Source: an uncultured bacterium (lineage in GTDB: Bacteria; CAYUVA01). Taken from it: DNA of 64,000 nucleotides. The notes beneath the pieces are model-generated. The model had not been told where the DNA came from and did no database searches. It saw only the letters and a list, made by a program, of their open reading frames with translations. Shown here in pieces: positions 2,974 through 63,470 of this stretch. A program made the translations under genes and the position numbers. The stretch is from positions 7,769 through 71,768 of the forward strand of contig CAYUVA010000012.1 of assembly GCA_964448115.1 (NCBI GenBank). The letters are read 5' to 3'. Position 1 is the stretch's first letter; the number at the start of each line of letters is the position of its first letter.

Positions 2974-2982
2974 TACAACTCG

Positions 2983-4519: not shown

Positions 4520-4534
4520 TGGAGTTTTTGAACC

Positions 4535-5560: not shown

Positions 5561-5573
5561 GAAGCATACCATT

Positions 5574-36579: not shown

Positions 36580-36595
36580 TTGATATCTCACGCAA

Positions 36596-37893: not shown

Positions 37894-39373
37894 CAATTGA
37901 AGCTGCTTGCGGTTTGTTGCCGTTGCCTGAAAAGATGCTCTCCCAGGTGCTTCTCAAGGCATTACCAATCAGTATAATCCCACCGAGCACCATGTTTCGC
38001 GGGGTTATTGTTCCTTGTCTTATGTGTCTTAGTATCATGCCCGGCCGTAGGTAATATGAGTTCATTGCCTTGCGTTGCAGTAGCGCCAGTTCGTGGTGCG
38101 ACATTCCCTCTGGGGCATAAGCCAGCTCTCCGCCGAATGCGGACCAGTCCGTCCAACTGGTAAACTTTTCCGGCTCTAAGGTGGCGATCCGTCCCCGCTC
38201 CTGCTCGTAGAAACGCGAACCAGGCAAGGGCACAGCAACATTGAACTTGACGATGTCGCAGTCAAGCTCCTTGGCAAAGCGGATGGTATCCATACAGGTC
38301 TCGGTTGTCTCTCCAGGCAAGCCAAGCATCCATAGACCTAAAGTCAGTATCCCCGCCTTCTTGATGTATCCCATAATTCGTCTTGCTTGAGCCAGGGTAG
38401 TTTTCTTGTTAATCGAATCTAGGATATGTTGATTGCCGACCTCGAAGCCGATCATGATCAGATGGCACCCGGAGCGCTTCATTGCCATTACCAGCTCCTC
38501 GTTGAGCAGATCGACCCTGGTCTCGGTTACCCAGCGGATCTTTTTATGCAGCCCTCTTTTTACAAGCTCCTCACAGAATTTTAAGCCGTGCCGTATGCTG
38601 AACGGGAAGTTGGCGTCGTTGAAGCCGACGTAAGGCGCTTGGTAGCGCTCATGCATGTACTCGATTTCATCAACTATGGCGGCTATGCTCCTGAAGCGAG
38701 GCTTTTCATAGACCTGATCCTGCGAGCAGAAGGTGCACTTCCAGGGGCAGCCCCGCGAGCCGACAATGGGGATGATAAGGTCTCTCACCGACAGGAGGGG
38801 AATCCCCTGGCTATAATACTCGAAATCGAGCAGATCCCACGACGGATATGGCAAGGAGTCGAGGTCGATAATCGGCTGTCGAGGTTTAGTGAATTTCACC
38901 TCGCCATCCCGTTTGAAGGCTATGCCATCGACCTTTGAGAGATCCCCATCCTCTGCCAGGCAATGTATAAGCTGCAAGCTGGTCATCTCCCCCTCGCCGA
39001 ACACGATCACATCTGCCAGATCCTCACGCAGAATTGTATCTGGAAAAACATTGGCATGGATATTACCCCAGAAGACGAGCGTATCTGGACAAGTGCGCCT
39101 GATGCCAGAAACGATCTTGGAGACCATGGGGACGACCGGCGTAAGCACCGAAAAGCCTACCGCATCCGGTTTTTCCTTGCTAATGCGATCAACGATGCGC
39201 TGTACCGATTCCTTAGTGGCATGCTGGTCGATTATCGATACTTCAATGCCATCGTTTCTCAGCACCGAAGCTATATAAGCCAGCCCTGATGGCAGGATAG
39301 GCAGAACGAAGCTGCGGATGCGATAGCTAGCCTGGATTAGCTCCGAGGCGGGATTTATGAGCAACACCTTCAT
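37835..39373 (-). CDS. B12-binding (class B) radical SAM protein
   Basis: MKVLLINPASE ... B12-binding-like region (LPSGLAYIASVLRNDGIEVSIIDQH). Radical SAM motif VGSRGCPWKCTFCSQ. The ORF track starts at a TTG at 39400; the ATG at 39373 gives the typical N-terminus. Its 3' end overlaps the convergent GT4 gene by 59 nt. Confidence 0.88.
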   Translation of the reverse strand: MKVLLINPASELIQASYRIRSFVLPILPSGLAYIASVLRNDGIEVSIIDQHATKESVQRIVDRISKEKPDAVGFSVLTPVVPMVSKIVSGIRRTCPDTLVFWGNIHANVFPDTILREDLADVIVFGEGEMTSLQLIHCLAEDGDLSKVDGIAFKRDGEVKFTKPRQPIIDLDSLPYPSWDLLDFEYYSQGIPLLSVRDLIIPIVGSRGCPWKCTFCSQDQVYEKPRFRSIAAIVDEIEYMHERYQAPYVGFNDANFPFSIRHGLKFCEELVKRGLHKKIRWVTETRVDLLNEELVMAMKRSGCHLIMIGFEVGNQHILDSINKKTTLAQARRIMGYIKKAGILTLGLWMLGLPGETTETCMDTIRFAKELDCDIVKFNVAVPLPGSRFYEQERGRIATLEPEKFTSWTDWSAFGGELAYAPEGMSHHELALLQRKAMNSYYLRPGMILRHIRQGTITPRNMVLGGIILIGNALRSTWESIFSGNGNKPQAASIASQGYFEKDNRPVEQRCPK

Positions 39374-39438
39374 TCTATTAGTATCTAGTATATCTAACAA
39401 TGAGTTGTCAATCTAGGGGAGGCTTCCATAGAATTCAC

Positions 39439-41121
39439 CTACCCAAGATATCCTAAGTCCTTTAGCTTGCGTTTCATCTCCTCGACCTCATCCGAGGAGA
39501 TTGCTGGTTGGCTGTCCGAGCCTTGCTCCTCCTCGATGTACTCGGCTGGCTTGGCTTTGATCCGCTCTTTATCGATCAGCTTTTTAAGCAGCCTGCCATC
39601 CATGTATGATGGAATCGGCTCATCGAGCAGGTACAGGACAGTAGGAGCTATATCTATTATGCCCGCGCCCTCTATTGTATCCTGTTTGCTCAAACTAGGA
39701 CCCGCTGCGATCAGTACGCCGTCCATGGTATGGTTGCCATACATGCCTTGAATGGGGATAAAGACTCGGTTGGAGGTGAAGCCGGTCAGGTTGGCTGCGA
39801 AATAGCCATCCTTCTGGGAGAGGAAAGTAATATCAGGGCAGTTTGCCTGGTGCGCTCCGCTATATATCTCACTCGTGTAAATGTCGGCCTCTATCCTTTT
39901 GCCAGTCGCCGGGTCGGTGAGCGAGCGTAGCTTTCCTATTATCTCATCGCGCAGGCTGATATATTCCGATTGCTCCACGCAGCCGGACGGCTCCCGCCCC
40001 TTGAGGTTGATGATCAATTGCCCCATGCCGGTCTTGGCATAAGCCAAAGTGCGCGTGAAATCGACATCAGCCATGGTCAGAAGGAAGCTCTTTTTTCCCA
40101 TGCGGAAGGTGGTAAGCTCATCATAAGGCGCTTGAGCTTTGAGCTTTACTCCCAGGCGCTTTAACAGCCTTAGCGCTCCGTAAAATAGCCTTTCCCAGGT
40201 TATACCCCGATTCCACAGCGCCACCTTGAGCAAAGTACGAAGATCCCTCTTGAAATGAAGATACCCCTGCTGGTAGAGCCAGTAGTTCAGGTCTATAAGG
40301 TGGTGTATGCCTCCAAAGCCATGATCCGAGATGACCAGGTAATCAACATCACTGCCGGCAAGTTGCATCAGTTCCCCTAGTCGCTCATCGAGGAGCGAAT
40401 AGTAATCCTCAATGGCGCTTACATGACGGGCAGCAAGGTCTGGATCGTGCGCGGGATGCGAGGTATCGATCAGTTGCCACAGCTCGTGCTGGATGCGATC
40501 CGTTCCCCAGACATGAAGAACGGTCAAATGGGGATCGAGCTTCTCGTACAGGTACTTTGCCACTGCGACCTTGTATTCCAGCATGTCCCTGCAATCACGG
40601 ATCAGCGCGGCAATATCATCGTCAGATAGGCTAGTCCCGGTTATGCGAGTTTTCATGTATAGATAATAGGGTCCGAATCGCTGCTCTATCTCAAGCCTCA
40701 CTTTCGGTGGATATATAAAATCTTGCGCCTTGTTTGGGGTGAGGAAGCCAGCGACCAGTACGCCGTTGACCGGCTCCGGCGGATAGGTGGTAGGGACATT
40801 GAGTATAAGCACCCGCTTTCCGGCATCGCTCAGCCTGCGCCACAGGGTTTTGCAGCCTAAGTATGTGCGGTTGATGGGGGTTTCCTCATAGGTGCCGGGC
40901 ACCTTTACCAGGAACTCGTAGATGCCGTGCTTGCCAGGATTGCAACCAGTGGCAAAGGTTGACCAGGCAGGAACGGTTATCGGCGGCACAGTGGAGCGAA
41001 GGATACCCCGTGTGCCTTGCTGCATCATGCGCATCAAATTCGGCAATAAGCCCTTGTCCATCATCGGCTTCAGCACCTTGAATGTAGCACCATCGAGGCA
41101 ATAGATGAATACCTTACCCAT
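39439..41121 (-). CDS. Alkaline-phosphatase-superfamily enzyme (type I phosphodiesterase / nucleotide pyrophosphatase family)
   Basis: VFIYCLDGATFKVL ... TVPPITVPAWSTFATGCNPGKHGI ... HVWGTDRIQHE ... ISDHGFG. ATG at 41121 (GGAG RBS) overlaps the upstream stop by 8 nt (ATGGGTAA). The ORF track's earlier ATG at 41166 is less likely. Confidence 0.85.
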   Translation of the reverse strand: MGKVFIYCLDGATFKVLKPMMDKGLLPNLMRMMQQGTRGILRSTVPPITVPAWSTFATGCNPGKHGIYEFLVKVPGTYEETPINRTYLGCKTLWRRLSDAGKRVLILNVPTTYPPEPVNGVLVAGFLTPNKAQDFIYPPKVRLEIEQRFGPYYLYMKTRITGTSLSDDDIAALIRDCRDMLEYKVAVAKYLYEKLDPHLTVLHVWGTDRIQHELWQLIDTSHPAHDPDLAARHVSAIEDYYSLLDERLGELMQLAGSDVDYLVISDHGFGGIHHLIDLNYWLYQQGYLHFKRDLRTLLKVALWNRGITWERLFYGALRLLKRLGVKLKAQAPYDELTTFRMGKKSFLLTMADVDFTRTLAYAKTGMGQLIINLKGREPSGCVEQSEYISLRDEIIGKLRSLTDPATGKRIEADIYTSEIYSGAHQANCPDITFLSQKDGYFAANLTGFTSNRVFIPIQGMYGNHTMDGVLIAAGPSLSKQDTIEGAGIIDIAPTVLYLLDEPIPSYMDGRLLKKLIDKERIKAKPAEYIEEEQGSDSQPAISSDEVEEMKRKLKDLGYLG

Positions 41122-43555
41122 CGGACTTGCTCCCCGTAACCTGCTCGATTGAGACCAGCTCGCCATCCTTGACTATGTAGATTCCCTTTTTCAGCTTGGT
41201 TTTTTTCTGTCGAGTCAACACCTCGCCTGGCTCTTTAACGATGGTTACACCATTGGGTACTACCACTCCAGGATTGATGAAGACCCCGCCGCCGACGGTA
41301 GCACCATGCCCCAAGCAGGGTCCTAAAAACATGCGCCCGCTATCGATCACCCGGTCCTTGTGCATCACTTTTATCGTTTTTTGGAGCTTGCGATCCAGCA
41401 GCATATCAAACAGGATAGCCTGCGAGGTCTGCACCGCACCTTTACCGATAAGAGCACATTGGAATCCTGGGCTTGATACCAGACTGGAGGGATAAAGCAC
41501 GCTGAAGTTTACCTTGGTGTGAAAGGCGACCACGCAATTATCGCCAATGACCGAGAAGCTGACATCACAGTTGCTATCGATCTTGACATTGTCGCCGATA
41601 AAGCTCCCCCTGATAACCGAGTGCGCACCAATCTCGACATTATCTCCTAAAACACAAGCCTCTACCGATGCAGTAGGATGAATACGACATCCCCTTCCTC
41701 GATAATTATAGCGACCCATGACGCGCCAGGGATTGAAGCTAAACCCTCTGAACACTGCCAACAGCCCCTTTATTACTGTACGAGGTGTGATTCGCCAGTG
41801 GAAGCCCTGCATTGCAAGGTGATTGGCATCAGTTATATGCATCCAGTGCTCTATATGCAGTATCCCCTCTGGGGTTATGGGAATGGAGAAATCAGCATCC
41901 GGGGCGAGCAGCTTAAGGTTCGGTGGGGTAAATACCTTCTCTTGGAGCTTGATAATAAGCGGCTTTATTGCAGACTCGCAGTCTGGCACTATATAGAAAA
42001 CATCGTACAAGTAAGCCCCATTTCCATCGGCATCCTCGATATATTCGAGATCCTGCAAGGCTGTATAGTGCTCGGTGAATGCGCTTGGTCTCACTCCAAG
42101 GCGCAGGCTTTCTGAGCTGCCGTAGGTGTCGCGTAAAAAAAGGCGCAGCAACTGCTCGGTTATGAATACATGGTCATAGATAAGTATGTATGGCTCATCG
42201 CCTCGGATATGCCCAACCGAGCTTGCAACATAAGATTTGATGCCCAGCCTGGAGAGCGTTTCCCGCTGGTAGTCAATAAGCTCCCTGTTTAGCACGCGGC
42301 ACCTGGAGACCTCGTCTCCAAGAGGCTCGATGATTTTGTCAGACTTAAGAATATATGCCTTGAGCATCCTGGTTGCAGCCTTGTAGGATAAACCCTTCCA
42401 GTTTACCTTTCCTTTCATGATGAATCGTAAGGCGGTCTCCATCTCCATCAGGCAGACCATTATCCCGCCCAGAAAGCCGAGCAATGTCCAGAACCTTAGC
42501 CTGATCCCAAGCAATAGATGCGGAAAATATAGATTCAATGCTTGGATGAAATATGCTGCGCCAGCCATAAACAGCACTGGAGGGCTGCATGAATCGTGTA
42601 TCCCGGTTACCTCAGCCATGATCACCGCAGCCGGCAAGGCGGTCAGAATGAGCAAGATAAACGAACCGATAAGCATCCCCACCGGCTTGGTTCGTCCCAG
42701 TTCCATCTTTCGGTATTCTATCTTCTGCCACCCTCGCCAGAGATCCCTGATGTTTGTATATAGCTTCAATCCCATGAGGCTTGGTGCGAACAGGTAGGCA
42801 AATCGATAGCCACTTGCCTTTATCTTCTCGGCGAGGATAGTATCCTCCCAGAACTCCCCGCGGATGCGCTTATGCCCGCCGATTGCCTGGTAGGCACTGC
42901 GCCGAAACAGCATGAAGGGTCCGTTTGCCATTGCCTTGCGCGAATGGGGATCATTGAGCTGCTTGGGCGGAACCAGTACCCCTAAAGAAACGATGTATGC
43001 GTTCATCAGCCGGTCCCAGAAGCTGCGATAGATCGGCTGCGGCACGATGGTGAGCATATCGACTTGATTTGCTACCATGTAATTGACCGCTGAATCGAGC
43101 AGCCCCGCTTTGGGCATTGTATCAGCATCGAGAAACAGGATATATTCCCCGCTGGAAGCCTCAAATCCTTTGTTTAGTGCATAATTTTTCCCAGCCCAGC
43201 CATGCGGCGTCTCTGTATTGGTAATAATCTTTATTTCATAACCGGTTGGACAACTATTGGCAAATTCAGAAGCGATCTGCGGGGTTTTATCAGTCGAGCG
43301 GTCATCCACAACAATAACCTGCAGGTTCGGATAATTATTAGCAACAACTCCGAGCAGGCACTTGCCAAGATCCTTCTCTTCATTATGGGCAGGGATGATA
43401 ACCGATAGACCTGGTAAGGATCGTTTGGCTTCATCTGTCAGTGCTTCCTTATCGAGAAATATAATATGCCTTTTTTTATATACCCAGGCGATGAAGATGC
43501 TTGCCTGGATCAGCAGGCATGTAAGAATAAGTATTGTAAGGATCGCCTCCCCCAA
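41114..43555 (-). CDS. Fusion protein: membrane-anchored GT2 glycosyltransferase, multi-TM segment, and C-terminal left-handed beta-helix (hexapeptide-repeat acyl/nucleotidyl-transferase-like) domain
   Basis: GT2: LSVIIPAHNEEKDLGKCL ... VIVVDDRSTDKT ... ILFLDADTMP. Several TM helices follow the GT domain. C-terminal hexapeptide repeats VLGDNVEIGAHSVIRGSFIGDNVKIDSNCDVSFSVIGDNCVV ... GHGATVGGGVFINPGVVVPNGVTIV. TTG start sits 3 nt after the upstream stop. Confidence 0.85.
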   Translation of the reverse strand: MGEAILTILILTCLLIQASIFIAWVYKKRHIIFLDKEALTDEAKRSLPGLSVIIPAHNEEKDLGKCLLGVVANNYPNLQVIVVDDRSTDKTPQIASEFANSCPTGYEIKIITNTETPHGWAGKNYALNKGFEASSGEYILFLDADTMPKAGLLDSAVNYMVANQVDMLTIVPQPIYRSFWDRLMNAYIVSLGVLVPPKQLNDPHSRKAMANGPFMLFRRSAYQAIGGHKRIRGEFWEDTILAEKIKASGYRFAYLFAPSLMGLKLYTNIRDLWRGWQKIEYRKMELGRTKPVGMLIGSFILLILTALPAAVIMAEVTGIHDSCSPPVLFMAGAAYFIQALNLYFPHLLLGIRLRFWTLLGFLGGIMVCLMEMETALRFIMKGKVNWKGLSYKAATRMLKAYILKSDKIIEPLGDEVSRCRVLNRELIDYQRETLSRLGIKSYVASSVGHIRGDEPYILIYDHVFITEQLLRLFLRDTYGSSESLRLGVRPSAFTEHYTALQDLEYIEDADGNGAYLYDVFYIVPDCESAIKPLIIKLQEKVFTPPNLKLLAPDADFSIPITPEGILHIEHWMHITDANHLAMQGFHWRITPRTVIKGLLAVFRGFSFNPWRVMGRYNYRGRGCRIHPTASVEACVLGDNVEIGAHSVIRGSFIGDNVKIDSNCDVSFSVIGDNCVVAFHTKVNFSVLYPSSLVSSPGFQCALIGKGAVQTSQAILFDMLLDRKLQKTIKVMHKDRVIDSGRMFLGPCLGHGATVGGGVFINPGVVVPNGVTIVKEPGEVLTRQKKTKLKKGIYIVKDGELVSIEQVTGSKSDG

Positions 43556-45082: not shown

Positions 45083-47440
45083 TTAAGATATCCTGAGTCG
45101 ATGGAAGCAATAAATCATGGTTAGACTGGTCATCATGGCAAACAGATATACCCCTAGGCGAAATGAGAATGGTTGGAAGCAAAGGATGACCTCATGGCTA
45201 CCTGCCTCAAGCTCGACAGACATGAAGTACTTATGCCGGGTTATCTGATTTTCAACGCCATCGATAAATGCCCGCCAGCCAGGATAAAAGGTGCTTCGAT
45301 AAAATAATGTGCCTGCAACCGGTGTTCTCACCATGGCATGAAGGCTGTTCATGCCCTCGTTGAAACGCACAGATGTAGCATTATTCACCGAGTGATTGTA
45401 GTCTTGGCGGGGAATAAACTCCACCATAGGGGTGAGTTGCTCAAGTTTGTCGATTCTACATCCATCGATTGCAAGCTCCCCTTTCCCAGGCGAGTCTTTG
45501 TCAAAACTTGCTTCCTCCCTGCCCTGGAATGACGATGCGAGGGGTATGGTGTCAGGATAAACAATCATGGCGGTGCTTGTCTGCATTAAAAGGCTTTTAG
45601 GTGTTTTATCCAACAAACGAGCCCATGAGCTGAGTTGTCCAGTGGCTTCCTCCCAGAAACGGCTATAGATAGCCGGGTATAGCGACTCCCAGCCGCGAAT
45701 GTCTCTCAAGCCATAGGCGATACATGTGTTGGGTGGGAGGATTTCGCCCTTACCAAAATGGTTGAACTCGCTCTCCAGGGCTGCGAAACGGCTGTTGCCA
45801 ATCTCTTCCCCGAGCTTGTCTGTAAGGCTGGTGGTGGGGAAAATGACCTTTTTGTCAACAAACGGATTGTATCCGATATGCAGAAACAGAAGCTCCAGTA
45901 TTATTGCAGTTGCAATCATCGTTGTTGCCAATGAACCACTCAGCAATCGCCGGGAATAAAGCAAAAGAATGATTATTCCCCACAAAGCCAGTAACAACTG
46001 CGGATAAACCCTGATCGATAAAATCAGCGAACCCAGGGAATTGGATAAGGTCGCCAGATACATCGAAAGCGAGTTCGGCTGCGAGTTATCAAGATAGTTG
46101 CGCTCGTTGACTTTGACCACCATAGCCAACGAAACCAGGCTGAGAACAAAGACAATCGATATTATTACAGTCAAGCCGGCCTTCCTTTTTCCCATTAGCC
46201 TGACATGAAGCCAATCAATAGCCAATCCGCTGCATAGCGCGAAACATAAGGCGGAGATCGCCTTGAGTCGGCTCAGGTCCATGAATGAAATGAGCACTAA
46301 TAGGGGTGTTAGTATCTTTTGAATTTGATTTGCAGATACAACCACGGCGACAATCATCGGAATTATACCCAGGATAAGAAAAGCAATCAGCCTTCTTGGG
46401 CGATCACTGCTAAGCACAGCGCTTATGATCAGAATCATCGATAGGATGCCAACATAAGCATTATAAAGATTAAAGTAGCTGAGCTTGAATAAAAAAATGC
46501 CGAAATAGGTGTTCTTGTGCGGGAACCCATAAAATTGTGGCAGCAGATTAACTATAAGTGATGACAAGGGCACTGATTCCTCGCCAAAGTATCTCGGCAC
46601 CCCATAGCGCTGGCTATTGATGAAAAGCTCCATGCTAGGCAGGAGTTGGGGCAAGCCGATTATTATGCCTAGTAATGCTATGCAAAAGCCAGAAGCTATT
46701 GCCCTGAAGGCAGAGACCTCGTGGATAAACAACCCGCTGATGAACATCCAGGCTATTATGAACATAAGCAGATATATTATGTATTGCAAATGCCCCCCCA
46801 GGTTGATTATGCCCATGATGCAAGCTGCGGCAAGCAGGTTCAGAAAATTACCCTTAGATAAAAACCGTTCACCAAATAGCATTGCCAGTGGAAATAAAGC
46901 CATTGCAAAGATGATATAGGGATACTCCATGCGACAATAGAAGAATGGATTGAGCACATATATGGCACCTCCAGTCATGGCTGGAATCAAGCCGATCCCC
47001 CAGGAGCGAAGCAATAAAAAGGCGAACCAACCGCCTAAAAAGAAGGGGGCTAGTGCCGATAAAGTCCAAAGATGCTCAAAATCGAGGACAGGGCAAAACA
47101 AATTGAATGGATTCAAAGGATTGCTGATACCGTTGGCGAGAAGTGGAGCGCCACAGAGAATATAAGGATTCCACAGCGGTATCTTGCCTGCCCGGAGCAT
47201 CTTTGAGCAAAGCATACGCATCGGGTAGTATTGAAGGATTGGATCATCTATATCCGGATTCTGCGCCTTGATACCTTCAAGCCCCGCGATCGCTTTCCAG
47301 GGGAGAAAATTCTGAACCAACCAATCAGCATTAACCGGGATGCATCCGCTCAGAAAGTAAGGATACCCGATTATCAATGTCAAGATCGCAAAAAATGCCA
47401 GTGGAATTAATTGCTCGGTTCGACATCGTTGCTTGATCAT
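45083..47440 (-). CDS. Large polytopic membrane protein with C-terminal soluble domain (YfhO-like / GT-C-like architecture)
   Basis: 785 aa. About 14 or more TM helices in the first 520 aa or so, then a hydrophilic domain of about 260 aa. 4-nt overlap with the upstream epimerase gene. Confidence 0.7.
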   Translation of the reverse strand: MIKQRCRTEQLIPLAFFAILTLIIGYPYFLSGCIPVNADWLVQNFLPWKAIAGLEGIKAQNPDIDDPILQYYPMRMLCSKMLRAGKIPLWNPYILCGAPLLANGISNPLNPFNLFCPVLDFEHLWTLSALAPFFLGGWFAFLLLRSWGIGLIPAMTGGAIYVLNPFFYCRMEYPYIIFAMALFPLAMLFGERFLSKGNFLNLLAAACIMGIINLGGHLQYIIYLLMFIIAWMFISGLFIHEVSAFRAIASGFCIALLGIIIGLPQLLPSMELFINSQRYGVPRYFGEESVPLSSLIVNLLPQFYGFPHKNTYFGIFLFKLSYFNLYNAYVGILSMILIISAVLSSDRPRRLIAFLILGIIPMIVAVVVSANQIQKILTPLLVLISFMDLSRLKAISALCFALCSGLAIDWLHVRLMGKRKAGLTVIISIVFVLSLVSLAMVVKVNERNYLDNSQPNSLSMYLATLSNSLGSLILSIRVYPQLLLALWGIIILLLYSRRLLSGSLATTMIATAIILELLFLHIGYNPFVDKKVIFPTTSLTDKLGEEIGNSRFAALESEFNHFGKGEILPPNTCIAYGLRDIRGWESLYPAIYSRFWEEATGQLSSWARLLDKTPKSLLMQTSTAMIVYPDTIPLASSFQGREEASFDKDSPGKGELAIDGCRIDKLEQLTPMVEFIPRQDYNHSVNNATSVRFNEGMNSLHAMVRTPVAGTLFYRSTFYPGWRAFIDGVENQITRHKYFMSVELEAGSHEVILCFQPFSFRLGVYLFAMMTSLTMIYCFHRLRIS

Positions 47441-48537
47441 GAGAGGGCTTTTCGGATTATATCGAGCATCTTGCCGGCAGCATCGCCGTTTCCGAAGATC
47501 GTATCATCAGCCTGCCTTGGAGCCGGCTTGCTCGTAATCATGTAATCAACCGCCTCGATTATCCCCTTGGCTTCCCTGCCAGCCAATACGCCACAGCCGA
47601 GATCGAATATCTCGTCATACTCGGTGGTCTCATCGATCACCACGCAGGGCACCCGGGCGTAGAAAGCCTCCTTGAGCACACCTGACGAGTCGGTCATCAC
47701 CAGTTGCGCATTCAATACAAGCCCTAGGAAGTCTCGGTATCCAATCGGTTCAAGCAACCTTATTTGATGAGCTGCCTCTAGCTTGCTCCATAGAGCGAAT
47801 TCTTTTAGGCGCTTTTCAGTGCGCGGGTGCACAGGAAAGATCATAGGCATCTCCAAAGAGGTGAGTGCCATTACTATTTCGGCGAGTATTTGTGTATCAT
47901 CGACCGTCTCAGCCCGATGCATGGTAAGCAGGGCATACTGACCAGATTTCAAGTCATATTTCTTCGGCACATCAGCATTATAAAAGCCTTGTGTAACCGC
48001 TATCTTGAATGTATCGTATGTGATGTCGCCGGTAAGGAATATGCGATTATCGGGAATGTTTTCCCTCCTCAGGTTCTCGACTGCCCTTGGTATTGGGCAG
48101 AAACAGAAGTCCGCGCAATGGTCGGCCACCAGCTTGTTCATCTCCTCTGGACGCCATGTATATTCCCGCATCCCAGCCTCGATATGACCATTGGGCATGT
48201 GTAACTTGTAGGCAGCCAGTGCGCCAGCCAAAGCTGAGTTGGTATCCCCGGGCACCAGCACCAGATCTGGCTTCTCAGCCAATAGTACGCTATCCAATTC
48301 CTGCAGCATCCTTCCGGTCTGCACGCCATGTGTGCCACTACCAACCTTGAGATCATAATCGATGGGGGGAAACTGGAAATCATCAAAAAACGCATCCCTC
48401 ATGCTGAAGTCATAGTGCTGCCCGGTGTGGACGGTAACCAACTCGAAGTCATCAGGGTAATCGTTTAGCCTCCAGAAGAGCGGCGCGCACTTGACGAAGT
48501 TCGGTCTTGTACCCATGATCACCATCAGCTTTATCAT
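47437..48537 (-). CDS. wecB: UDP-N-acetylglucosamine 2-epimerase (non-hydrolysing)
   Basis: MIKLMVIMGTRPNFVKCAPLF ... VHTGQHYDFSM ... the conserved two-Rossmann layout of the WecB/MnaA family. Confidence 0.88.
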   Translation of the reverse strand: MIKLMVIMGTRPNFVKCAPLFWRLNDYPDDFELVTVHTGQHYDFSMRDAFFDDFQFPPIDYDLKVGSGTHGVQTGRMLQELDSVLLAEKPDLVLVPGDTNSALAGALAAYKLHMPNGHIEAGMREYTWRPEEMNKLVADHCADFCFCPIPRAVENLRRENIPDNRIFLTGDITYDTFKIAVTQGFYNADVPKKYDLKSGQYALLTMHRAETVDDTQILAEIVMALTSLEMPMIFPVHPRTEKRLKEFALWSKLEAAHQIRLLEPIGYRDFLGLVLNAQLVMTDSSGVLKEAFYARVPCVVIDETTEYDEIFDLGCGVLAGREAKGIIEAVDYMITSKPAPRQADDTIFGNGDAAGKMLDIIRKALS

Positions 48538-50955: not shown

Positions 50956-52110
50956 CTAAAGCCTGAAGCTGCTGCTGGCTAGCGGAGCATGACTCCAATC
51001 TTCTCGCGATAGATCATAGACTCGCCAGAAATAGGCTCCTTTAGCGAAGCGTTGCAGCACCTGTGGTTTTATGGCAAAAAGGGCTTCGCTTGGAAAGGAA
51101 GCGAACTTGTCGATGAAGTTGACCGAGTTCGAGATCTCCAACAGGTAGCGATGTTTGTGCTCCGTCTGGCAACTACCTTCCCACCTGAGGGTTATTCCAT
51201 CTTCAGGCTTTACCGTTTCACTAGCTTCCTCGATGACTCTTTTAAGTCCTTTCAAGTGTGCGCTTCCGAGCCTTACCAGGTTGGAGGCGAACATGCATGA
51301 CTTGAACAGGGCGATGGTTGACCGCTTATAACGCTTGCTTAAGAAACAAAGCAATCCCTTGTCCCAAGCAACGAGGTCTCTAATCTTCTCGGCATGGCGC
51401 AGCTTGCTTTGTCCGAAGTAGTGAATGATCCTGGCTTTAGGTTCAACAGCTATCTTATAGCCTGATCTGCGAATACGATAGCTCCAATCGGTATCCTCGT
51501 ATCCCAAGAAATAATGTTCATCCATATAATCGAGCTTCCTAGCCAGTTCAGCGCTGAGCATGAAATACGCCCCTCCGATGCCAGGCACCTCGCAGAGCTG
51601 ATCATCTTTGAGCCAGTATTGCCAATCGACCTCCCAAAGTTGCCTTATCTTGGAGGCATTAGGGAATATCCTGGATGCAATCGTTTGCTCAAGGATGGCA
51701 TGGAGGAGATCCGGTGGCTTGTTGGTGCTTATCTGGAGGGTCATATCATCATCGATAAAGGCTCTCGGACCCACCGCTCCTATCTGCGAATTACTCTCCA
51801 AACACTGCACCATATTCTCCAGGGCACCTGGCAGCACAATGGTATCCGGGTTGAGCAGGATAATATAGTTCCCCCCGGCTATCCTCATGCCCTGGTTATT
51901 AGCCCTGGCAAAGCCGAGATTTTCCTGGTTTACTACCAGCTTGGTGCTGGGAAAATCCGCTGCCAGCATCTCTGCCACACCATCGGTGGAGCTGTTATCA
52001 ACAACGATGACCTCGTAATCAAGATTGCAGCCGCTTTCAATGGAGAATAGACAGTTCTTCAGATAATCGGTTGTGTTATAGTTGACAATGATTATAGACA
52101 GGTCTTTCAC
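50956..52110 (-). CDS. Glycosyltransferase family 2
   Basis: LSIIIVNYNTTDYLKNCL ... YEVIVVDNSSTDG ... DTIV (DxD-like) ... soluble, 384 aa. Confidence 0.9.
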   Translation of the reverse strand: MKDLSIIIVNYNTTDYLKNCLFSIESGCNLDYEVIVVDNSSTDGVAEMLAADFPSTKLVVNQENLGFARANNQGMRIAGGNYIILLNPDTIVLPGALENMVQCLESNSQIGAVGPRAFIDDDMTLQISTNKPPDLLHAILEQTIASRIFPNASKIRQLWEVDWQYWLKDDQLCEVPGIGGAYFMLSAELARKLDYMDEHYFLGYEDTDWSYRIRRSGYKIAVEPKARIIHYFGQSKLRHAEKIRDLVAWDKGLLCFLSKRYKRSTIALFKSCMFASNLVRLGSAHLKGLKRVIEEASETVKPEDGITLRWEGSCQTEHKHRYLLEISNSVNFIDKFASFPSEALFAIKPQVLQRFAKGAYFWRVYDLSREDWSHAPLASSSFRL

Positions 52111-56402: not shown

Positions 56403-57635
56403 ATGTCGCTTAATACACGAAAAAACGACCTTCTGATATCTCTTAAGGGACAAGGCTTGACTCGAAGGGTGCTTGCGATCTCCATGGTGCGCCTAAGCGA
56501 TGCGCTGAGCAATAGCCTGCTGATGATCGTGATACCACTGATCATTCATGATCTCCATGCAGAGGGATTCAAGGAGCTTCCACGAGAGACATTGGTCGGC
56601 ATCGCCATAGCTGTTTATGGCTTTACAATGGCTCTAGGACAGCGCCCCATGGCTAATCTAACCGACCGTATCGGTCGCCGCAAGCCGTTTATCTTGGCTG
56701 GTTTGCTAGCATTGGCTCTAATTACCTTCTCTTACGGCATGGTCGAGTCCTACCCTCAATTAATAATGCTGCGCTTCCTCCACGGCATGGCAGCAGCCAC
56801 CATCATACCGGCATCCCTGGGGTTGCTGGTAAAATTCAGCTCTCAGCAGAGCAGAGGCGGCTCCATGGGATTTTATACGACCTTTAGAGGATTGGGATTT
56901 TTTCTTGGTCCTATCCTTAGCGGTTATATAACCGTGACTTATGGCAGGAGTTGGGTATTTGCTACCGGTGCATTCTTTGTTGTCCTCGGCTTTTTGTTCA
57001 TGCTAACCGTGGGGGAGGGATCCCGCCGCACATCTGCTCAAGCTGATGAGGAATCGATGCCGGGAAATGAGATGGCTGCTTTGGCGACAAGCCACATGAT
57101 CCTCGCCGTGGTCAGTTTCGCATGGGGATTTGGCATGACCATGATGACCACCCTGGAGAATGAGTTCAATGAGCGGCTTGGTCAGGATGCCTTTCACTTT
57201 GGTATCGCCTTCTCTGCCATGGTTCTGGTGCGCCTATTCTTGCAGTTTCCCTTTGGCAGGTTAAGTGATCGGATTGGCAGGAAGAGGGTTATCATGTTGG
57301 GGCTTTGCCTGATGGCGCCAGCTACAATACTACTTGGCTATGCTCCTAGTACTGAATGGCTGATCTTCTTTCGTGCCTTGCAGGGTATCGGTTCGGCTGC
57401 ATTAGCATCGCCGCTTTTCGCATTAGCAGCCGATCTATCCCAGGCAGGCAAGGAAGCCCAGCAGGTGAGTTTGATCGCAACCGGCTTCGGATTGGGGCTT
57501 GCTAGCGGTCCCTTGGTTACAGGATTCCTGGCTGGTTACGTATCCTTCTACTGTCCCTTTTATGTCGCAGCAGCCATGACCCTTCTAGGCGCTCTGTTTG
57601 TATGGTTAATAGTTCCGGGAACTAGTGCTAGGTAG
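56403..57635 (+). CDS. MFS transporter
   Basis: 12-TM pattern. MFS signature between TM2 and TM3: LTDRIGRRKPFILAGL, and its repeat LSDRIGRKRVIMLGL in the second half. Confidence 0.9.
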   Translation: MSLNTRKNDLLISLKGQGLTRRVLAISMVRLSDALSNSLLMIVIPLIIHDLHAEGFKELPRETLVGIAIAVYGFTMALGQRPMANLTDRIGRRKPFILAGLLALALITFSYGMVESYPQLIMLRFLHGMAAATIIPASLGLLVKFSSQQSRGGSMGFYTTFRGLGFFLGPILSGYITVTYGRSWVFATGAFFVVLGFLFMLTVGEGSRRTSAQADEESMPGNEMAALATSHMILAVVSFAWGFGMTMMTTLENEFNERLGQDAFHFGIAFSAMVLVRLFLQFPFGRLSDRIGRKRVIMLGLCLMAPATILLGYAPSTEWLIFFRALQGIGSAALASPLFALAADLSQAGKEAQQVSLIATGFGLGLASGPLVTGFLAGYVSFYCPFYVAAAMTLLGALFVWLIVPGTSAR

Positions 57636-57696: not shown

Positions 57697-58776
57697 ATGT
57701 CAAAGGTTCTGGTTACCGGTGCCTGCGGTTTTCTCGGCACCCATCTGGTTGAGGAATTTATTGCTGCTGGATACGATCTCAAAGCCACTGACCTGCCAGA
57801 TATGGATTCAGACTTCGTTACCGGGCTGGGAGCTGAATTTATACCATCTGATGTAACCGACATCGACTCGCTGCGCAAGGTAGTAAAGGGCTGCGATATC
57901 GTAGTACACAATGCTGGCATCTTCGATTTCAGCGCGTCGAGGGAGCTTCTTTTCGATGTCAATTGCGGTGGGGTTCATAACATGGCAAAAGCTTCCTTGG
58001 AGGCTGGCTTAAAGCGCTTCATAATAATAAGCTCGGTAGCGGTCTATGGCTCCCCTGCCTACATCCCCATCGATGAAGAGCATCCTAAAGCGCCCTCTAA
58101 CAACTACGGTCTATCCAAGTATGCCGGGGAGTTGGCTGCATTCAAGTACTACCACGAGAACGGTCTGCCGGTTACATCCTTGCGCCCCACACTCATTTAT
58201 GGTCCCCGCAGCACTTATGGTCATGCCTGTTTCCTCGCTTTGGCTCAACTGGTAAAATGGAGGCTCAAGCGGTTACCACTTTTGGGCATCAAGGGAGGCT
58301 TTTACGCTCATGCAGTTCATGCAGAGGATGTGGCACGGGCTGCGGTGTTGGTTGCACAAAATGATCGCGCCATCGGGGGCGCCTACAACCTGGTCGATGA
58401 TACTCCTTTGACAGTCGAGCAGTATCTCCAATCCTTGATTGAGCCATTCGGATTAAGTCCCCTATTCAAATTCCCAATTTTCAAACCAATCTGGCGCGGT
58501 TGCGCAGCCATGTTGGTCAAACATTCAAGGTGGGCGATCAATCTACTAAATAGGCGATTGCAACACCTTTTTGACAGAATGTGCCAGCAGTTTGAGCTTC
58601 GTACTCCCTTAAGACCGCGCCTGGACATCGAGTACATCGATTATTCACGCCAGGACATGATCTTCTCCAACCAGAGACTGAAAAAACTTGGCTTCAAGTT
58701 CAACTATCCCGACTTCAGGACTGGTATAGCTGAGACGGTGCAATGGTATAAGGACAATGGGTGGTTGGTCAGATAA
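57697..58776 (+). CDS. NAD-dependent epimerase/dehydratase (extended SDR)
   Basis: VLVTGACGFLGTHLV (GxxGxxG). Catalytic YGLSKYAGE (YxxxK). 359 aa. Confidence 0.92.
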   Translation: MSKVLVTGACGFLGTHLVEEFIAAGYDLKATDLPDMDSDFVTGLGAEFIPSDVTDIDSLRKVVKGCDIVVHNAGIFDFSASRELLFDVNCGGVHNMAKASLEAGLKRFIIISSVAVYGSPAYIPIDEEHPKAPSNNYGLSKYAGELAAFKYYHENGLPVTSLRPTLIYGPRSTYGHACFLALAQLVKWRLKRLPLLGIKGGFYAHAVHAEDVARAAVLVAQNDRAIGGAYNLVDDTPLTVEQYLQSLIEPFGLSPLFKFPIFKPIWRGCAAMLVKHSRWAINLLNRRLQHLFDRMCQQFELRTPLRPRLDIEYIDYSRQDMIFSNQRLKKLGFKFNYPDFRTGIAETVQWYKDNGWLVR

Positions 58777-59148: not shown

Positions 59149-59460
59149 ATGCCGATATACGAATACAAGTGCGATTCCTGCGGTAGAATCTTCGAGGTAT
59201 TGCAGGGCTTCGGTGAAGCACCGGTAAAGACCTGTAAGTTCTGCGGTAAAAAGGTACATAAAATCATATCTCCAGCAGGCTTTATTCTCAAAGGTCCCGG
59301 CTTTTATGTGAACGATTACCCCTCCAAGGACAGAGAAAAAGCGCTGCGCAGCGAAAATAATAATTCAGGGCATACATCAAGATCCAAGACCAGTTCCTCA
59401 TCAGATACTAAGCAAACAAAGGAAAAAGAGAAATCGAAGGACACCACCTCGGCGGCATAA
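59149..59460 (+). CDS. FmdB-family zinc-ribbon protein with Ser/Lys-rich tail
   Basis: MPIYEYKCDSCGRIFEVLQ ... CKFCG (CxxC...CxxC). Strong RBS AAAGGAGG 7 nt upstream. Confidence 0.8.
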   Translation: MPIYEYKCDSCGRIFEVLQGFGEAPVKTCKFCGKKVHKIISPAGFILKGPGFYVNDYPSKDREKALRSENNNSGHTSRSKTSSSSDTKQTKEKEKSKDTTSAA

Positions 59461-59489: not shown

Positions 59490-60842
59490 TTACATGCCCT
59501 GGATATAGCCGAGACTCTTAAGCAGCTCCAATCGTTCAGCATCCTGTGGCGAGCGCTTAGGCTTAAAAGATGCGCTTTCATTCAGATCGACCTGGTAGCT
59601 ATCGATAAAATCTAGCTTTTGTGTGGTTAGGAAATCCTTGGTAAAAAGCTCGCCCAGTACTTTACCGTCCATATCCCTTGCCACTGGCAATCCAAAGTAA
59701 TATAAAAGGGTCGGTGTAATATCCAGCACTGATGCTCGTTTAATCCTGGTTCCCTTTCTAATTCCCTTGCCGAAGGCGATGATGACTCCATTGATGCTGT
59801 GCCAGCCGTAAATACCCCTTCTTATTATATCATCGCCCACCTGGATCGGCTCGGTTGGATCGTAATCCCTGAAACCATGGTCTGAAACCACCATTAAAAG
59901 CGTATCATCATCCACCAGTTTCATGAGTTCACCAAGATAGCGATCCAGCACCCTGTAGTAATTCAATATCACCTTGCCAGCGAATAGCTTGTATTTCTCT
60001 TCCATTGATGTTGGATTAAGCTTACCTTTATTCATCTGTCTATATCGACGATAGTCCTTCCAGTACCAATGAGAGAGCATATCGGCTCCCTCGTAATAGA
60101 CTGCCAGGAACCTCGGATGCTTGTTTTCCCACAAGTACTTGCCTATTTTATGATAACTAAGGTCCTTGAAATACATGGTGAATGAGCCGGTCTGAGTCAG
60201 GATGTTATCCTTGAGGAGCAACTCCATCTCCTTTTCACCGCGTTTGGTATGCATCAAAGGAAGTATCTCCTCGAAGAAACCTGGCGGATAAACCGAGGAA
60301 GCATAAGTATTGTTGGCATCTATGGCGAAAACCGGCCAGCCGGATCCCTCATCCTTCTGGCGCAACGGATAGGTAACATCGGAGCAGATATACCCTCTTA
60401 TCTCTTCTGGCGGATAGGTAACCCAGAAGCCGACAATACCTGGGATCATATTATGCTCGCTGAGCAGGTTCCAGATCGCCTTGGTTCTTCTCATGTTGGA
60501 CGACACCGGCGCCAGATCTCCCTTTTCAGTCTGCACCGTGAAACTCCTGATGCCGTGAACTTGAGGGCTATAGCCGGTCATTATGCTGGTCCATATCGCC
60601 GGCGAAAACATCGGCTCGATGCTTGTAAGAACGCCACTGGAGCCTTGGGTTATCATTCGTTCGAAGTTGGGAAGCTCGCCAGCATCGCGAAGCTGATCGA
60701 TTATCTCCCAATCAATACCGTCGAAACCTAGTAGTATTGCCTTTCTTTCAGCTCCCGAATTCCTCTTATGACAAGCTAAGCCACCCTGAAGCAAGAGCAT
60801 GCAGATAAGCAAAGCTGCTATCTTTGTATATACACATCTCAT
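59490..60842 (-). CDS. Lipoprotein of the alkaline-phosphatase superfamily (type I phosphodiesterase / nucleotide pyrophosphatase family), paralogue of the gene at 39439-41121
   Basis: Lipobox LLQGGLAC. ILLGFDGIDWEII ... SIEPMFSPAIWTSIMTGYSPQVHGI ... VVSDHGF. Confidence 0.85.
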   Translation of the reverse strand: MRCVYTKIAALLICMLLLQGGLACHKRNSGAERKAILLGFDGIDWEIIDQLRDAGELPNFERMITQGSSGVLTSIEPMFSPAIWTSIMTGYSPQVHGIRSFTVQTEKGDLAPVSSNMRRTKAIWNLLSEHNMIPGIVGFWVTYPPEEIRGYICSDVTYPLRQKDEGSGWPVFAIDANNTYASSVYPPGFFEEILPLMHTKRGEKEMELLLKDNILTQTGSFTMYFKDLSYHKIGKYLWENKHPRFLAVYYEGADMLSHWYWKDYRRYRQMNKGKLNPTSMEEKYKLFAGKVILNYYRVLDRYLGELMKLVDDDTLLMVVSDHGFRDYDPTEPIQVGDDIIRRGIYGWHSINGVIIAFGKGIRKGTRIKRASVLDITPTLLYYFGLPVARDMDGKVLGELFTKDFLTTQKLDFIDSYQVDLNESASFKPKRSPQDAERLELLKSLGYIQGM

Positions 60843-60930: not shown

Positions 60931-62232
60931 ATGAAAAGTGAGCTTTTAAGATCGCCTACCGATATTTTCATACGCTACCTGCCTATCCTGCATATCGCTG
61001 ATGCTATACGCCAGAAAGATGAGCAGCTTGAGATCCTCGATGTTGGAGGGGCTAATGGTATTGCTGCAGAATTGCTCGAAAAAGATAGTGTCATTATAGC
61101 AGACCTGGCTGCCTTCGAGCACGAAAACATGGTCATCGCCGATGCTGCCCGGCTACCATTCGTAGATGATACATTCGATATAGCCATCAGCATCGATACA
61201 CTTGAACACATACACCCAACATCACGCGAAAAGGTCATGGAAGAGGTGCTGCGGGTCTGCATACGGGGAGCTTTGCTGGTTTTTCCCTATAACCACACGC
61301 AGATAGTGAAAGCGGAGCGAAAAATTCTTGAATTCCAGGATCATCTGGGCATAGATGCTCGATTCCTTCATGAACATGAAGAGTATGGCTTGGTCAAGAT
61401 CAGTCAAGTGGAGGGATATCTAGCTCGAACAGGCTACGCCTATGAGCGTTTGCCGCTTAGCGCTTTGACCTTATGGTTACTAGAGCATGTTCTGGAGGGC
61501 TTTTTAGGGTATCTTCCAATGGGTGAAGAACTGCTTAATGCTGCCTATCAGCTTACCAACCGCTGCCTCATGGAGAGCTTGTCCATCGGGTTGCCCTATC
61601 GAATGGGGTATTTTATAGGAAAATCGATAAATCCAGGGCAGGTTATGCAACAGGTAACTCGTACAAAGAAAAAAAGGACTGTTCCTGCGCGGGAAATTAA
61701 CCAGTTTATCAAGGCGATAATAGGATCAAGGCAAGGCTATTCAGAGATGGTCGCCTACTGCGAGCAAGCCAAAGACGAGATTCGACAACAACATGAAGAA
61801 CTGGAAAAACATGCAAGCTACCAGAGGGAGCTTCTACAGGTAATTAGTGAGCTAAAACAAACCATTGAGCAGATGCGCCAGGAGTTCCAAGAGAAGAACG
61901 ACCATATAGATAGGCTGCAAACCTATATCAAGAAGCTGGAAGGTCAATATGCCCAGGCCATTATAAGCACAGAATCCCTGGTGGAGCAGATAAATCACCT
62001 CAAACACAAAATTAGGCAGCTCAATGAAGAAAGCCAACTGCGAAACGAGTACATTAGTAAATTGGAGGCTGAAGATAAGCAAAAAGGAGAATACATAGAA
62101 AAACAAGGTAGAGACTACCGAGACTTAGAAAGGCGATTTGCCGATCTCGAGGAGGAATTCAGGAACCTACAACAGAAATATGAATATATTACCAACCATA
62201 GGCTCTATAGGCTCATAGAAAGATTTATGTAA
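60931..62232 (+). CDS. Class I SAM-dependent methyltransferase with a C-terminal coiled coil of about 150 aa
   Basis: Motif I: ILDVGGANG. Methyltransf_11-like: AARLPFVDDTFDIAISIDTLEHI. Residues 280-433 or so are heptad-rich (EELEKHASYQRELLQVISELKQTIEQMRQEFQEKNDHIDRLQTYIKKLEGQ...). Confidence 0.85.
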   Translation: MKSELLRSPTDIFIRYLPILHIADAIRQKDEQLEILDVGGANGIAAELLEKDSVIIADLAAFEHENMVIADAARLPFVDDTFDIAISIDTLEHIHPTSREKVMEEVLRVCIRGALLVFPYNHTQIVKAERKILEFQDHLGIDARFLHEHEEYGLVKISQVEGYLARTGYAYERLPLSALTLWLLEHVLEGFLGYLPMGEELLNAAYQLTNRCLMESLSIGLPYRMGYFIGKSINPGQVMQQVTRTKKKRTVPAREINQFIKAIIGSRQGYSEMVAYCEQAKDEIRQQHEELEKHASYQRELLQVISELKQTIEQMRQEFQEKNDHIDRLQTYIKKLEGQYAQAIISTESLVEQINHLKHKIRQLNEESQLRNEYISKLEAEDKQKGEYIEKQGRDYRDLERRFADLEEEFRNLQQKYEYITNHRLYRLIERFM

Positions 62233-62360
62233 CAAGATAATGTTTTCCTTCATTTTTAGGGCTTGCATTCTGAGCAAAATACCCAGGGAGCCGTACCTGT
62301 AAATTTTACTTGCATGAATAATTTATTATGTTACTATTGTTATAGAGAAGGCAGGCAGAA

Positions 62361-63470
62361 ATGAAGGTTGCCATAGTACATGATTGGCTCACGGGTATGA
62401 GAGGTGGCGAGAGGGTGCTGGAGATTCTTTGTCAAATGTTCCCCGACGCGGAGATATATACCCTTTTTCACCACCAGGGGAGCGTTTCGCCGATAATCGA
62501 GAGACACCGCATTCACACCAGCTTCCTTCAGAAAGCGCCCCGCAGCTTGAACTATAGGTACATGCTGCCGCTATTTCCTTATGCGGTGGAGCAGTTCAAC
62601 CTAAAAGGATACGATTTGGTGATCAGCTCCTCGCACTGCGCAGCTATGGGCGCTATAACCGGCAGCTATTGCTGCCATATCTGCTACTCATTCACCCCTG
62701 CCAGGTACCTGTGGGAGATGCAGGATGAGTACTTCAATTCAAATGGCAAGAGGAGGATTACCAGGGCGATAATAGATTACCTCAGCAAGCACTTGCGCCA
62801 ATGGGAGGTATGCGCTAGCCATCGGGTCGATCTTTTTATCGCTATCTCGGAACATATCAAGCGACGGATAAACAAGTACTATCGCCGTGATGCTGTTGTC
62901 TTGCACCCACCGGTTAACCATGAGACATTCTACAACACCGGGGTAGCAAAAGAGGATTTTTACCTCATCGTGTCTGCTCCCGCTCCATATAAACGCCTTG
63001 ATTTAGCCATCGAGGCCTTCAATCGCCTAGGCGATCAGCTTGTGATTATCGGAGATGGTCCCCAGATGAAGAAGCTAAGGTCAGCCTCAAATGGCAATAT
63101 CAAGTTTTTAGGCTGGCAGCCGGATAGGGTACTGAACGATTACTATAATCGAGCTAGAGCCTTGATATTTCCAGGAATAGAGGATTACGGTTTAACGCCA
63201 CTGGAAGCGAACGCTGTTGGCACGCCGGTCATCGCCCTTGCAGCCGGTGGGGTCCTGGAGACGATCAAAGAAAACATAGGTGGAATCTTCTTCGATCATC
63301 AAGATGTCGATTCTCTATGTGAGGCTGTACAAAGATCAAAAAAGATCTCCCTTGATAGAGAGGCGATGATCGAACATACAAAAAGGTTCTCCATCCAATA
63401 CTTCATGGCAGAGTTTAAATCTCTCTTACAAAGGACGATAGCAAACTTTGGCAAAAAAGAGAAAACCTGA
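62361..63470 (+). CDS. Glycosyltransferase family 1 (GT4-type)
   Basis: KVAIVHDWLTGMRGGERVL N-terminal motif. Donor-binding FPGIEDYGLTPLEANAVGTPVIALAAGGVLETI. Confidence 0.9.
   Translation: MKVAIVHDWLTGMRGGERVLEILCQMFPDAEIYTLFHHQGSVSPIIERHRIHTSFLQKAPRSLNYRYMLPLFPYAVEQFNLKGYDLVISSSHCAAMGAITGSYCCHICYSFTPARYLWEMQDEYFNSNGKRRITRAIIDYLSKHLRQWEVCASHRVDLFIAISEHIKRRINKYYRRDAVVLHPPVNHETFYNTGVAKEDFYLIVSAPAPYKRLDLAIEAFNRLGDQLVIIGDGPQMKKLRSASNGNIKFLGWQPDRVLNDYYNRARALIFPGIEDYGLTPLEANAVGTPVIALAAGGVLETIKENIGGIFFDHQDVDSLCEAVQRSKKISLDREAMIEHTKRFSIQYFMAEFKSLLQRTIANFGKKEKT

Follow-up and report, generated by a model that had tools for sequence, protein, structure and literature searches.

Coiled-coil rulers that set the chain length of a glycan have, to our knowledge, been proven in only a handful of enterobacterial O-antigen systems. 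In WbdD of Escherichia coli O9a and in its form from Klebsiella pneumoniae O3, a catalytic head is carried on a coiled-coil ruler that sets chain length (PMC5082667, PMC11231755), and the WbdD ruler is a coiled coil of approximately 200 Å (PMC5082667). The coiled coil has been called a "characteristic marker" of terminators in O-antigen assembly that depends on ATP-binding cassette (ABC) transporters; in such terminators the coiled coil has the terminating module at its far end, and polymerase modules occur fused or as separate units (PMC11231755). A terminator that caps with methyl, has no kinase and carries a coiled-coil ruler is already an established concept, as in WbdD of serotypes O8 and O5. 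Here we describe a gene of similar architecture in a 64-kb stretch of DNA from an uncultured bacterium (contig CAYUVA010000012.1; the whole stretch of 64,000 nucleotides is referred to below as the window). Its product, referred to as the window protein, joins a class I S-adenosylmethionine (SAM)-dependent methyltransferase head to a coiled-coil tail, and the gene is followed by one that encodes a glycosyltransferase (GT) of family GT4. What is new is a divergent, orphaned gene in a methyltransferase family for which there is no specific, curated Pfam or NCBIfam model.

The initial annotation had called both genes, with the GT4 gene directly behind the methyltransferase gene, and these calls were borne out: both open reading frames (ORFs) are present, 128 nt apart, and the class assignments were confirmed by Pfam for both products and by AlphaFold2 for the methyltransferase (Table 1). 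The window protein scored above threshold against Methyltransf_11 (PF08241; 37.3 bits, cut-off 21.2) and against Methyltransf_8 (32.1 bits, cut-off 27); NCBIfam gave no family-level assignment for it or for the GT4 protein. The AlphaFold2 model, for which an alignment of 74 sequences was the input, has a mean predicted local distance difference test (pLDDT) score of 86, with values above 90 across most of the methyltransferase domain (aa 1-232). Within SAM motif I, residues L36, V38, G39 and G40 are invariant among the 74 family members and D37 is nearly so. The top matches in the PDB, by sequence and by structure, were Methyltransf_11 enzymes such as RebM (3bus), AtmM (6uv6) and LahSB (6uak), with which the window protein has in common a Rossmann-like class I fold and the SAM motifs. 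Unlike the window protein, these small-molecule and sugar O-methyltransferases are soluble and have neither a coiled-coil tail nor a linkage to Wzm and Wzt. Phosphoethanolamine and phospholipid methyltransferases are also among the structural neighbors.

The tail is a coiled coil. A single heptad register spans aa 267-432, inclusive of a low-confidence break at aa 387-395 between the two tail helices of the AlphaFold2 model, so that the tail of approximately 150 residues in the initial annotation was right in kind but is better given as 166 aa. Across this span the a and d positions are 70% hydrophobic, compared to 34% overall, a value as high as which was seen in none of 5000 shuffles; Fourier analysis of tail hydrophobicity gave a strongest period of 3.50 residues. 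The tail is free of proline, and E, K, R, D and Q make up 49% of it. For the continuous helix alone (aa 267-386) the a/d hydrophobic occupancy is 0.71, again reached by 0 of 5000 shuffles. The heptad statistics and the structural model therefore both describe a registered, helical tail and not a disordered one. If straight, the modeled helix would measure approximately 18 nm (approximately 180 Å), as compared to the approximately 200 Å of WbdD(O9a). Isoleucine prevails at the a positions of the core and leucine at the d positions, a pattern typical of simple parallel dimers under the Harbury rules, which suggests that the tail is a dimeric coiled coil. Matches of the tail to SMC, Rad50, ATG16 and laminin were set aside as coiled-coil composition, with scores far below the cut-offs.

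For a direct comparison we retrieved the O8 cluster of E. coli IAI1, in which the gene order is wzm, wzt, WbdD(O8), WbdA, WbdB and WbdC, with WbdD(O8) starting at the wzt stop. The WbdD(O8) protein and its K. pneumoniae O5 form are built like the window protein: an N-terminal class I methyltransferase leads into a coiled coil, behind which comes an element of the type SWR[IL]TxPLR (below, the SWR-type element; degenerate in the window protein), and at 425 aa WbdD(O8) is close in size to the window protein at 433 aa. The likeness extends to the position of the gene in the family to which the window protein belongs (described below), in which it likewise starts at the stop of a wzt that carries a carbohydrate-binding module (CBM). 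In WbdD(O8) the element is found directly after the coiled coil, at aa 307-320 (NSRSWRITQPLRWL), and it recurs nearly unchanged at the C-termini of the unrelated methyltransferase-coiled-coil proteins P0091, P0145, P0154, P0116 and P0073; we found no description of it in the literature searched. The window protein ends in TNHRLYRLIERFM, a degenerate and shortened version of the SWR-type element that aligns with N-S-R-S-W-R-I-T and the residues after it. As a possible region for membrane association and polymerase recruitment, its C-terminus offers this 13-aa aromatic-basic end and no long amphipathic region.

Five independent tests led us to reject homology to WbdD itself. WbdD(O9a) was not recovered by sequence or by profile search of the PDB even at E<=1, and it was not among the top 50 Foldseek matches of the window protein. 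A BLASTP comparison of WbdD(O8) with the window protein gave E=0.17 in the methyltransferase domain, the best overall value (E=0.064) falling in the coiled coil, and hhalign of WbdD(O8) against the family profile returned a probability of 0.6%. Judged by these comparisons, the window protein falls outside the WbdD protein family, and its likeness to WbdD is architectural, comprising the stalk, the putative docking element and the post-wzt position typical of its family, with a different methyltransferase head. WbdD of O9a and K. pneumoniae O3 (PDB 4ax8, 4azs and others) also differs in having a kinase domain, and its coiled coil is trimeric, as against the dimer suggested for the window tail. 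The earlier suggestion of a WbdD-like terminator is partly supported: the architecture, the linkage of the family to wzm and wzt(CBM), the GT fusions and the tail-end element of family members speak for it, and the likeness does not extend to homology of the catalytic domain.

The family to which the window protein belongs is large. A word-indexed search recovered almost no relatives; HMMER, run exhaustively with aa 1-255 as the query, returned 2415 cluster representatives (clustered at 50% identity) at E<=1e-3, of which 809 were at E<=1e-10. Planctomycetota, Chloroflexota and Actinobacteria are among the phyla in which members occur, and in public records these carry generic names ("class I SAM-dependent methyltransferase"), apart from one JGI entry named "O-antigen biosynthesis protein". 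The best independent match to the window protein was P0006 (1.6e-29, 33% identity). Against the family profile the window protein scored E=1.2e-74 (269 bits), a value that is inflated since the profile alignment (A2) contained the window sequence. The family head of approximately 240 aa has the signature LPFDQYQRY...LDVGG...LPFxDxxFD...DTLEH...HRYLxEHxxxGLP...W...FYN...YRH, and all 15 residues that are invariant among the 74 members (R15, L36, V38, G39, G40, D89, H93, R99, E105, R108, P119, E129, E148, W182 and R224) are present in the window protein.

Heptad-like tails are found in most of the top 150 representatives and differ greatly in length. Among 71 complete genes from species-representative genomes the tail ranges from 101 to 876 aa (median 306), a 9-fold range, while the heads are conserved, as would be expected of a spacer. 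In five proteins (P0060, P0110, P0119, P0121 and P0138) the methyltransferase and a short coiled coil are followed by two to three GT2 or GT4 modules. This arrangement of an N-terminal capping domain, a coiled coil and GT modules is that of K. pneumoniae O12 WbbB and of ORF6 from O7; in ORF6 a cryptic kinase and a CBM are additionally inserted behind the methyltransferase, ahead of the coiled coil (PMC11231755). The cap added by WbbB is Kdo and not methyl, and the window protein, unlike the WbbB and ORF6(O7) fusions, is a stand-alone form. Three further relatives (P0016, P0046 and P0062) carry a second Methyltransf_11 domain N-terminal to the family methyltransferase and coiled coil, which could indicate double methylation or a different position of methylation.

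The SWR-type element also recurs within the family. The strict pattern was found in 13 of 252 family tails, always within the last 45 aa, as compared to 0.2% of shuffled tails, and a looser aromatic-basic pattern in 33% of family C-termini versus 3% of other tail windows; both patterns were set after the data were seen, and these frequencies are indicative only. Examples are NSKSWRITAPLRKI in P0091 and SFSWRITGPLRAV in P0154. We also observed that a GT2 protein whose gene overlaps the end of P0009 (L086:1114-1620) opens with a short coiled coil and then NSKGYRTIRL, a stretch similar to the aromatic-basic element that closes the methyltransferase tails; from this likeness, a terminator and its GT might pair via matching coiled-coil and motif modules. 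In a reading to which we give a low probability, the ruler together with the SWR-type element would be a portable cassette that is carried on unrelated heads, namely the WbdD methyltransferase, this family, and GT N-termini such as that in L086.

The family is tightly linked to wzm and to wzt encoding the Wzt_C CBM. We scanned species-representative genomes with a tighter, largely Planctomycetota-type sub-alignment, as the broad alignment contained no sufficiently conserved stretch, and identified 284 relatives, the best 80 of which were almost all from Planctomycetota. Upstream sequence of at least 2.5 kb was available for 67 loci. In 63 of these, wzm, wzt with the Wzt_C CBM, and the methyltransferase-coiled-coil gene were contiguous and on one strand, and the spacing estimated from wzt to the methyltransferase gene clustered at -7 to -1 nt, which is a start/stop overlap. 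In two further loci wzt lay within 1.3 kb or was convergent just downstream, and two (L052 and L068) were true orphans, flanked by genes for an arginase and a guanido kinase; orphan positions amount to 2-4 of the 67 genomes. Because the tighter alignment was largely of one phylum, these counts are biased to Planctomycetota; a literature search found no paper that joined Wzt with Planctomycetes.

Six metagenome contexts are independent of that bias, and some of their source names give the phylum (Chloroflexota, Actinobacteria). In all six informative contexts (L002-L005, L087 and L088) there was a Wzt with Wzt_C together with GT2 and/or GT4 genes, and Wzm was called in four. The methyltransferase start overlapped the wzt stop in five of the six, directly so in L002, L003, L004 and L088. 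P0006, the closest relative of the window protein, lies in L005 between an upstream Wzt_C fragment (E=3e-39) and a downstream GT2-GT4 fusion. In L087 the methyltransferase-coiled-coil gene is followed by a GT2-GT4 fusion and then, in the opposite orientation, by wzt and wzm. P0009 was left out, its context being too short. Homologues were thus associated with glycan loci, as the initial annotation had anticipated, in all six informative metagenome contexts and in 63 of the 67 genome loci.

In the Planctomycetota loci, phmmer with single GT queries called no GTs downstream, and a Pfam scan of the downstream ORFs identified guanido-kinase genes. An ATP:guanido phosphotransferase (PF00217, arginine-kinase/McsB-like) was encoded directly after the methyltransferase gene in 14 of 52 loci (L006-L085; for example L006:10017-11114), and in the orphan locus L068, which is without wzm and wzt, such a gene still adjoins the methyltransferase gene (L068:9658-10752). 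Because WbdD(O9a) makes its phospho-methyl cap with a fused kinase, the guanido kinase could be a separately encoded, unrelated kinase partner.

Table 1. Coordinates of the features discussed, given as positions in the window except for WbdD(O8), which is given as positions in the E. coli IAI1 locus L093.
Feature	Coordinates	Strand	Remarks
Methyltransferase-coiled-coil gene	60931..62232	+	ORF, 433 aa; stop codon 62230-62232
Class I SAM-dependent methyltransferase domain, aa 1-232	60931..61626	+	includes family-specific helical subdomain, approximately aa 120-230
SAM-binding motif I, ILDVGGANG, aa 35-43	61033..61059	+	conserved across 74 family members
Lys/Arg-rich linker with short helices, aa 233-266	61627..61728	+	AlphaFold2 secondary structure, pLDDT 65-82
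Continuous 120-residue heptad helix, aa 267-386	61729..62088	+	AlphaFold2, pLDDT mostly 85-96; putative ruler
Terminal helix, aa 396-432	62116..62226	+	AlphaFold2, low confidence, pLDDT 45-62
C-terminal aromatic-basic element TNHRLYRLIERFM, aa 421-433	62191..62229	+	fits the loose motif pattern only
GT4 glycosyltransferase gene	62361..63470	+	369 aa; 128 nt after the methyltransferase stop
Response-regulator gene	starts 63540		downstream of GT4; extends past the window end
AlkP-family phosphodiesterase (PF01663)	59490-60842	-	divergent from the methyltransferase gene, 88 nt off; N-terminal hydrophobic signal-like segment
Zinc-ribbon gene	59149-59460		between epimerase and phosphodiesterase
Short-chain dehydrogenase/reductase (SDR) epimerase	57697-58776
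Major facilitator superfamily (MFS) transporter	56403-57635
GT2	50956-52110
UDP-GlcNAc 2-epimerase	47437-48537
GT2-LbH fusion	41114-43555		813 aa; hexapeptide
Second AlkP-family phosphodiesterase (PF01663)	39439-41166	-
GT4-like genes	at 29624 and 36652		among the scattered glycan-related genes of the window
WbdD(O8), WP_000535779.1	L093:33457-34734	-	425 aa, "class I SAM-dependent methyltransferase", E. coli IAI1

The window gene itself is located differently. We annotated every ORF of at least 150 aa in the 64-kb window, and the wzm/wzt transporter genes, which the initial annotation had proposed to look for along with polymerizing GT genes, were not present there: unlike the WbdD(O8) cluster, the window has no wzm, no wzt and no WbdA-like polymerase, and neither wzm/wzt nor a multi-module polymerase lies upstream of the gene (61 kb) or downstream of it (1.8 kb). 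Searches of the window by phmmer with Wzm and Wzt from the homologue loci gave no further match, and no match to Wzx or Wzy was found within the window. One ABC gene (16742-18787) was considered as an exporter and rejected, as its product is of the ABC-F type, with two ABC_tran domains and ABC_tran_Xtn and without a membrane domain. The start of the window gene does not overlap a wzt(CBM) stop; its upstream neighbor is the divergent phosphodiesterase, beyond which follow the zinc-ribbon gene, the SDR epimerase, the MFS transporter, and then purL, purQ and purS. The epimerase and MFS genes, which had been noted nearby, are real, but we found no support for them as components: the zinc-ribbon gene and the divergent phosphodiesterase separate them from the methyltransferase-GT4 pair, and neither an MFS transporter nor an epimerase lies beside the family gene in any homologue locus examined.

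The GT4 gene is the other half of the pair, and its product matched Glycos_transf_1 (83.5 bits, threshold 26.4), Glyco_transf_4 (29.7 bits, threshold 28.5) and Glyco_trans_1_4 (74.4 bits). A promoter/terminator scan predicted no terminator between the two genes and found fewer promoter-like sites than in shuffles; promoter-like hexamers can be seen by eye in the 128-nt gap, for which the consensus scan gave no + strand entry. The GT4 orthogroup is very large and unusually conserved, at approximately 50% identity across many phyla, with orthologues in WOR-3, Elusimicrobia, Ignavibacteriales, Zixibacteria, Deltaproteobacteria and others. In both contexts sampled, the orthologue is paired with a second GT4: in one (L089) the GT4-GT4 pair adjoins an initiating Bac_transf enzyme, and in the other (L090-L092) the locus includes a Wzx-type flippase and Wzy_C. 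Similarity of the window GT4 to WbdC and WbdB (25-29% identity, in the C-terminal part only) is generic to GT4 enzymes. Because its orthogroup is of the Wzx/Wzy or Bac_transf type, was not found in the Wzm/Wzt loci sampled, and has only this generic similarity to WbdB and WbdC, the GT4 is not the expected polymerase partner. The proposal that the methyltransferase terminates a polymer built by the neighboring GT was accordingly not upheld.

We consider it about an even chance that the window protein caps glycans in the manner of WbdD(O8), as a methyltransferase carried on a coiled-coil ruler. By analogy with WbdD of E. coli O8 and K. pneumoniae O5, we infer its substrate, the capping and ruler functions, and a docking role for the C-terminal element. 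In the mechanism that we propose, the catalytic head would be carried on a parallel coiled-coil stalk ending in an aromatic-basic docking element, and this C-terminal end would dock to the cytoplasmic membrane from inside the cell, to the glycosyltransferase machinery, or to both. With the methyltransferase head held approximately 18-23 nm away by the stalk, a growing undecaprenyl-linked glycan long enough to reach the head would be O-methylated at its non-reducing end. The methyl cap would halt elongation and would serve as a tag that is read by the CBM of a Wzt-type ABC exporter. For this copy, we infer that the exporter and the polymerase are encoded elsewhere in the genome.

Several observations weigh against this reading. 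The window lacks any ABC2_membrane, Wzt_C or exporter-type ABC gene by Pfam annotation, and no multi-module polymerase is adjacent, the sole adjacent GT being a single-module GT4 whose orthogroup is that of Wzx/Wzy- or Bac_transf-type loci and not of the Wzm/Wzt loci sampled. Of all members seen, the window protein diverges the most, with at most 37% identity to any relative, and the N-terminal LPFDQYQRY motif is degenerate in it (SPTDIFIRY). At the other end, TNHRLYRLIERFM fails the strict motif and is cut short, and the approximately 105 additional basic and hydrophobic residues that follow the motif in WbdD(O8) are absent from the window protein.

Some of the same observations would be accommodated if the protein were a tethered decorating methyltransferase that O-methylates internal or side-chain sugars of a glycan produced by the adjacent GT4 and other GTs, its coiled coil serving to oligomerize the enzyme or to tether it to a membrane-bound assembly complex and having no function as a ruler. 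The adjacent GT4 has its orthologues in Wzx/Wzy- or Bac_transf-type loci, in which Wzz-type proteins normally determine chain length; the window has no exporter bearing a cap-reading CBM, and an Ile/Leu core of the kind found here is typical of simple parallel dimers. We nevertheless think such a role unlikely, given that the family is nearly always translationally coupled to a Wzt with a cap-reading CBM, that a 9-fold range of tail lengths behind a conserved head is hard to explain by oligomerization alone, and that in the fusions the methyltransferase and the GT modules lie at opposite ends of the coiled coil, as in proven terminators.

A second alternative, which we rate as rather improbable, is that the gene is a displaced paralogue that acts on another substrate (a lipid, a phospho-headgroup or a protein), with the coiled coil used for localization and the adjacency to GT4 coincidental. 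All 15 family-invariant residues are kept, which argues for an unchanged active site, and the closest relative, P0006, sits in a Wzt_C-GT context. These points must be set against the status of the window protein as the most divergent member, with a degenerate N-terminal motif and a location outside any wzm/wzt locus, and against the existence of orphan members among housekeeping genes (L052 and L068). The hexamers seen by eye in the gap before GT4 (which the + strand consensus scan did not list), the divergently transcribed AlkP-family phosphodiesterase, and the phosphoethanolamine and phospholipid methyltransferases among the structural neighbors would also fit a change of substrate.

We give a still smaller chance to the idea that this copy is a ruler and capping enzyme that has become uncoupled from Wzm/Wzt and now operates with a GT4-based assembly of the Wzx/Wzy or Bac_transf type; if true, it would mean ruler-type chain-length control outside the ABC-transporter pathway. 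Finally, that the gene is a decaying, functionless remnant of a former wzm-wzt-terminator operon, as the lost neighbors, the high divergence and the shortened C-terminal motif might suggest, is highly improbable, because the 433-codon ORF is intact, with the same sequence in an independent Logan assembly, and the retention of the invariant residues and of an uninterrupted 166-aa heptad register implies purifying selection.

Other regions of the window merit mention. The paralogous PF01663 phosphodiesterase genes (59490-60842 and 39439-41166, both on the - strand) each adjoin glycosyltransferase genes. A stretch rich in radical-SAM genes (20800-23333, 29624-31024 and 35557-43555), of which two products have a B12-binding domain, one has SPASM and one has Radical_SAM_C, is interleaved with the two GT4-like genes, the GT2-LbH fusion and the phosphodiesterase at 39439-41166, and may represent an unusual cluster for modification of glycans or glycolipids. 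Three large proteins with transmembrane (TM)-like hydrophobic segments had no Pfam match, all encoded on the - strand: 23378-25150 (590 aa, approximately 7 segments), 26158-28587 (809 aa, approximately 15 segments) and 45083-47440 (785 aa, approximately 12 segments). The last of these genes adjoins that for the UDP-GlcNAc 2-epimerase, and its product could be an unrecognized glycan polymerase, ligase or transporter. Also abundant in the window are activators of sigma-54 and two-component proteins of the hybrid type (1804-6965). Each of four window proteins tested was the sole member of its 90% identity cluster, no record matched the GT4 or purL product exactly, a search of 185,579 species-representative genomes did not recover the locus, and the lineage appears to be poorly sampled.

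We believe that the findings at the level of the family are of greater interest than the gene from which they were reached, on account of how broad the family is, of the 9-fold variation in the length of its tails, and of the tail-end element that it has in common with WbdD(O8). A large and uncurated family combines a WbdD-like architecture and a post-wzt position with a different methyltransferase head and with tails of 101-876 aa. If its members are terminators, then the strategy of capping and measuring a glycan would be widespread far beyond the Proteobacteria, the length of the tail could predict glycan chain length from genome sequence, and the conserved SWR-type element at the tail end would be a candidate docking site that is open to test.

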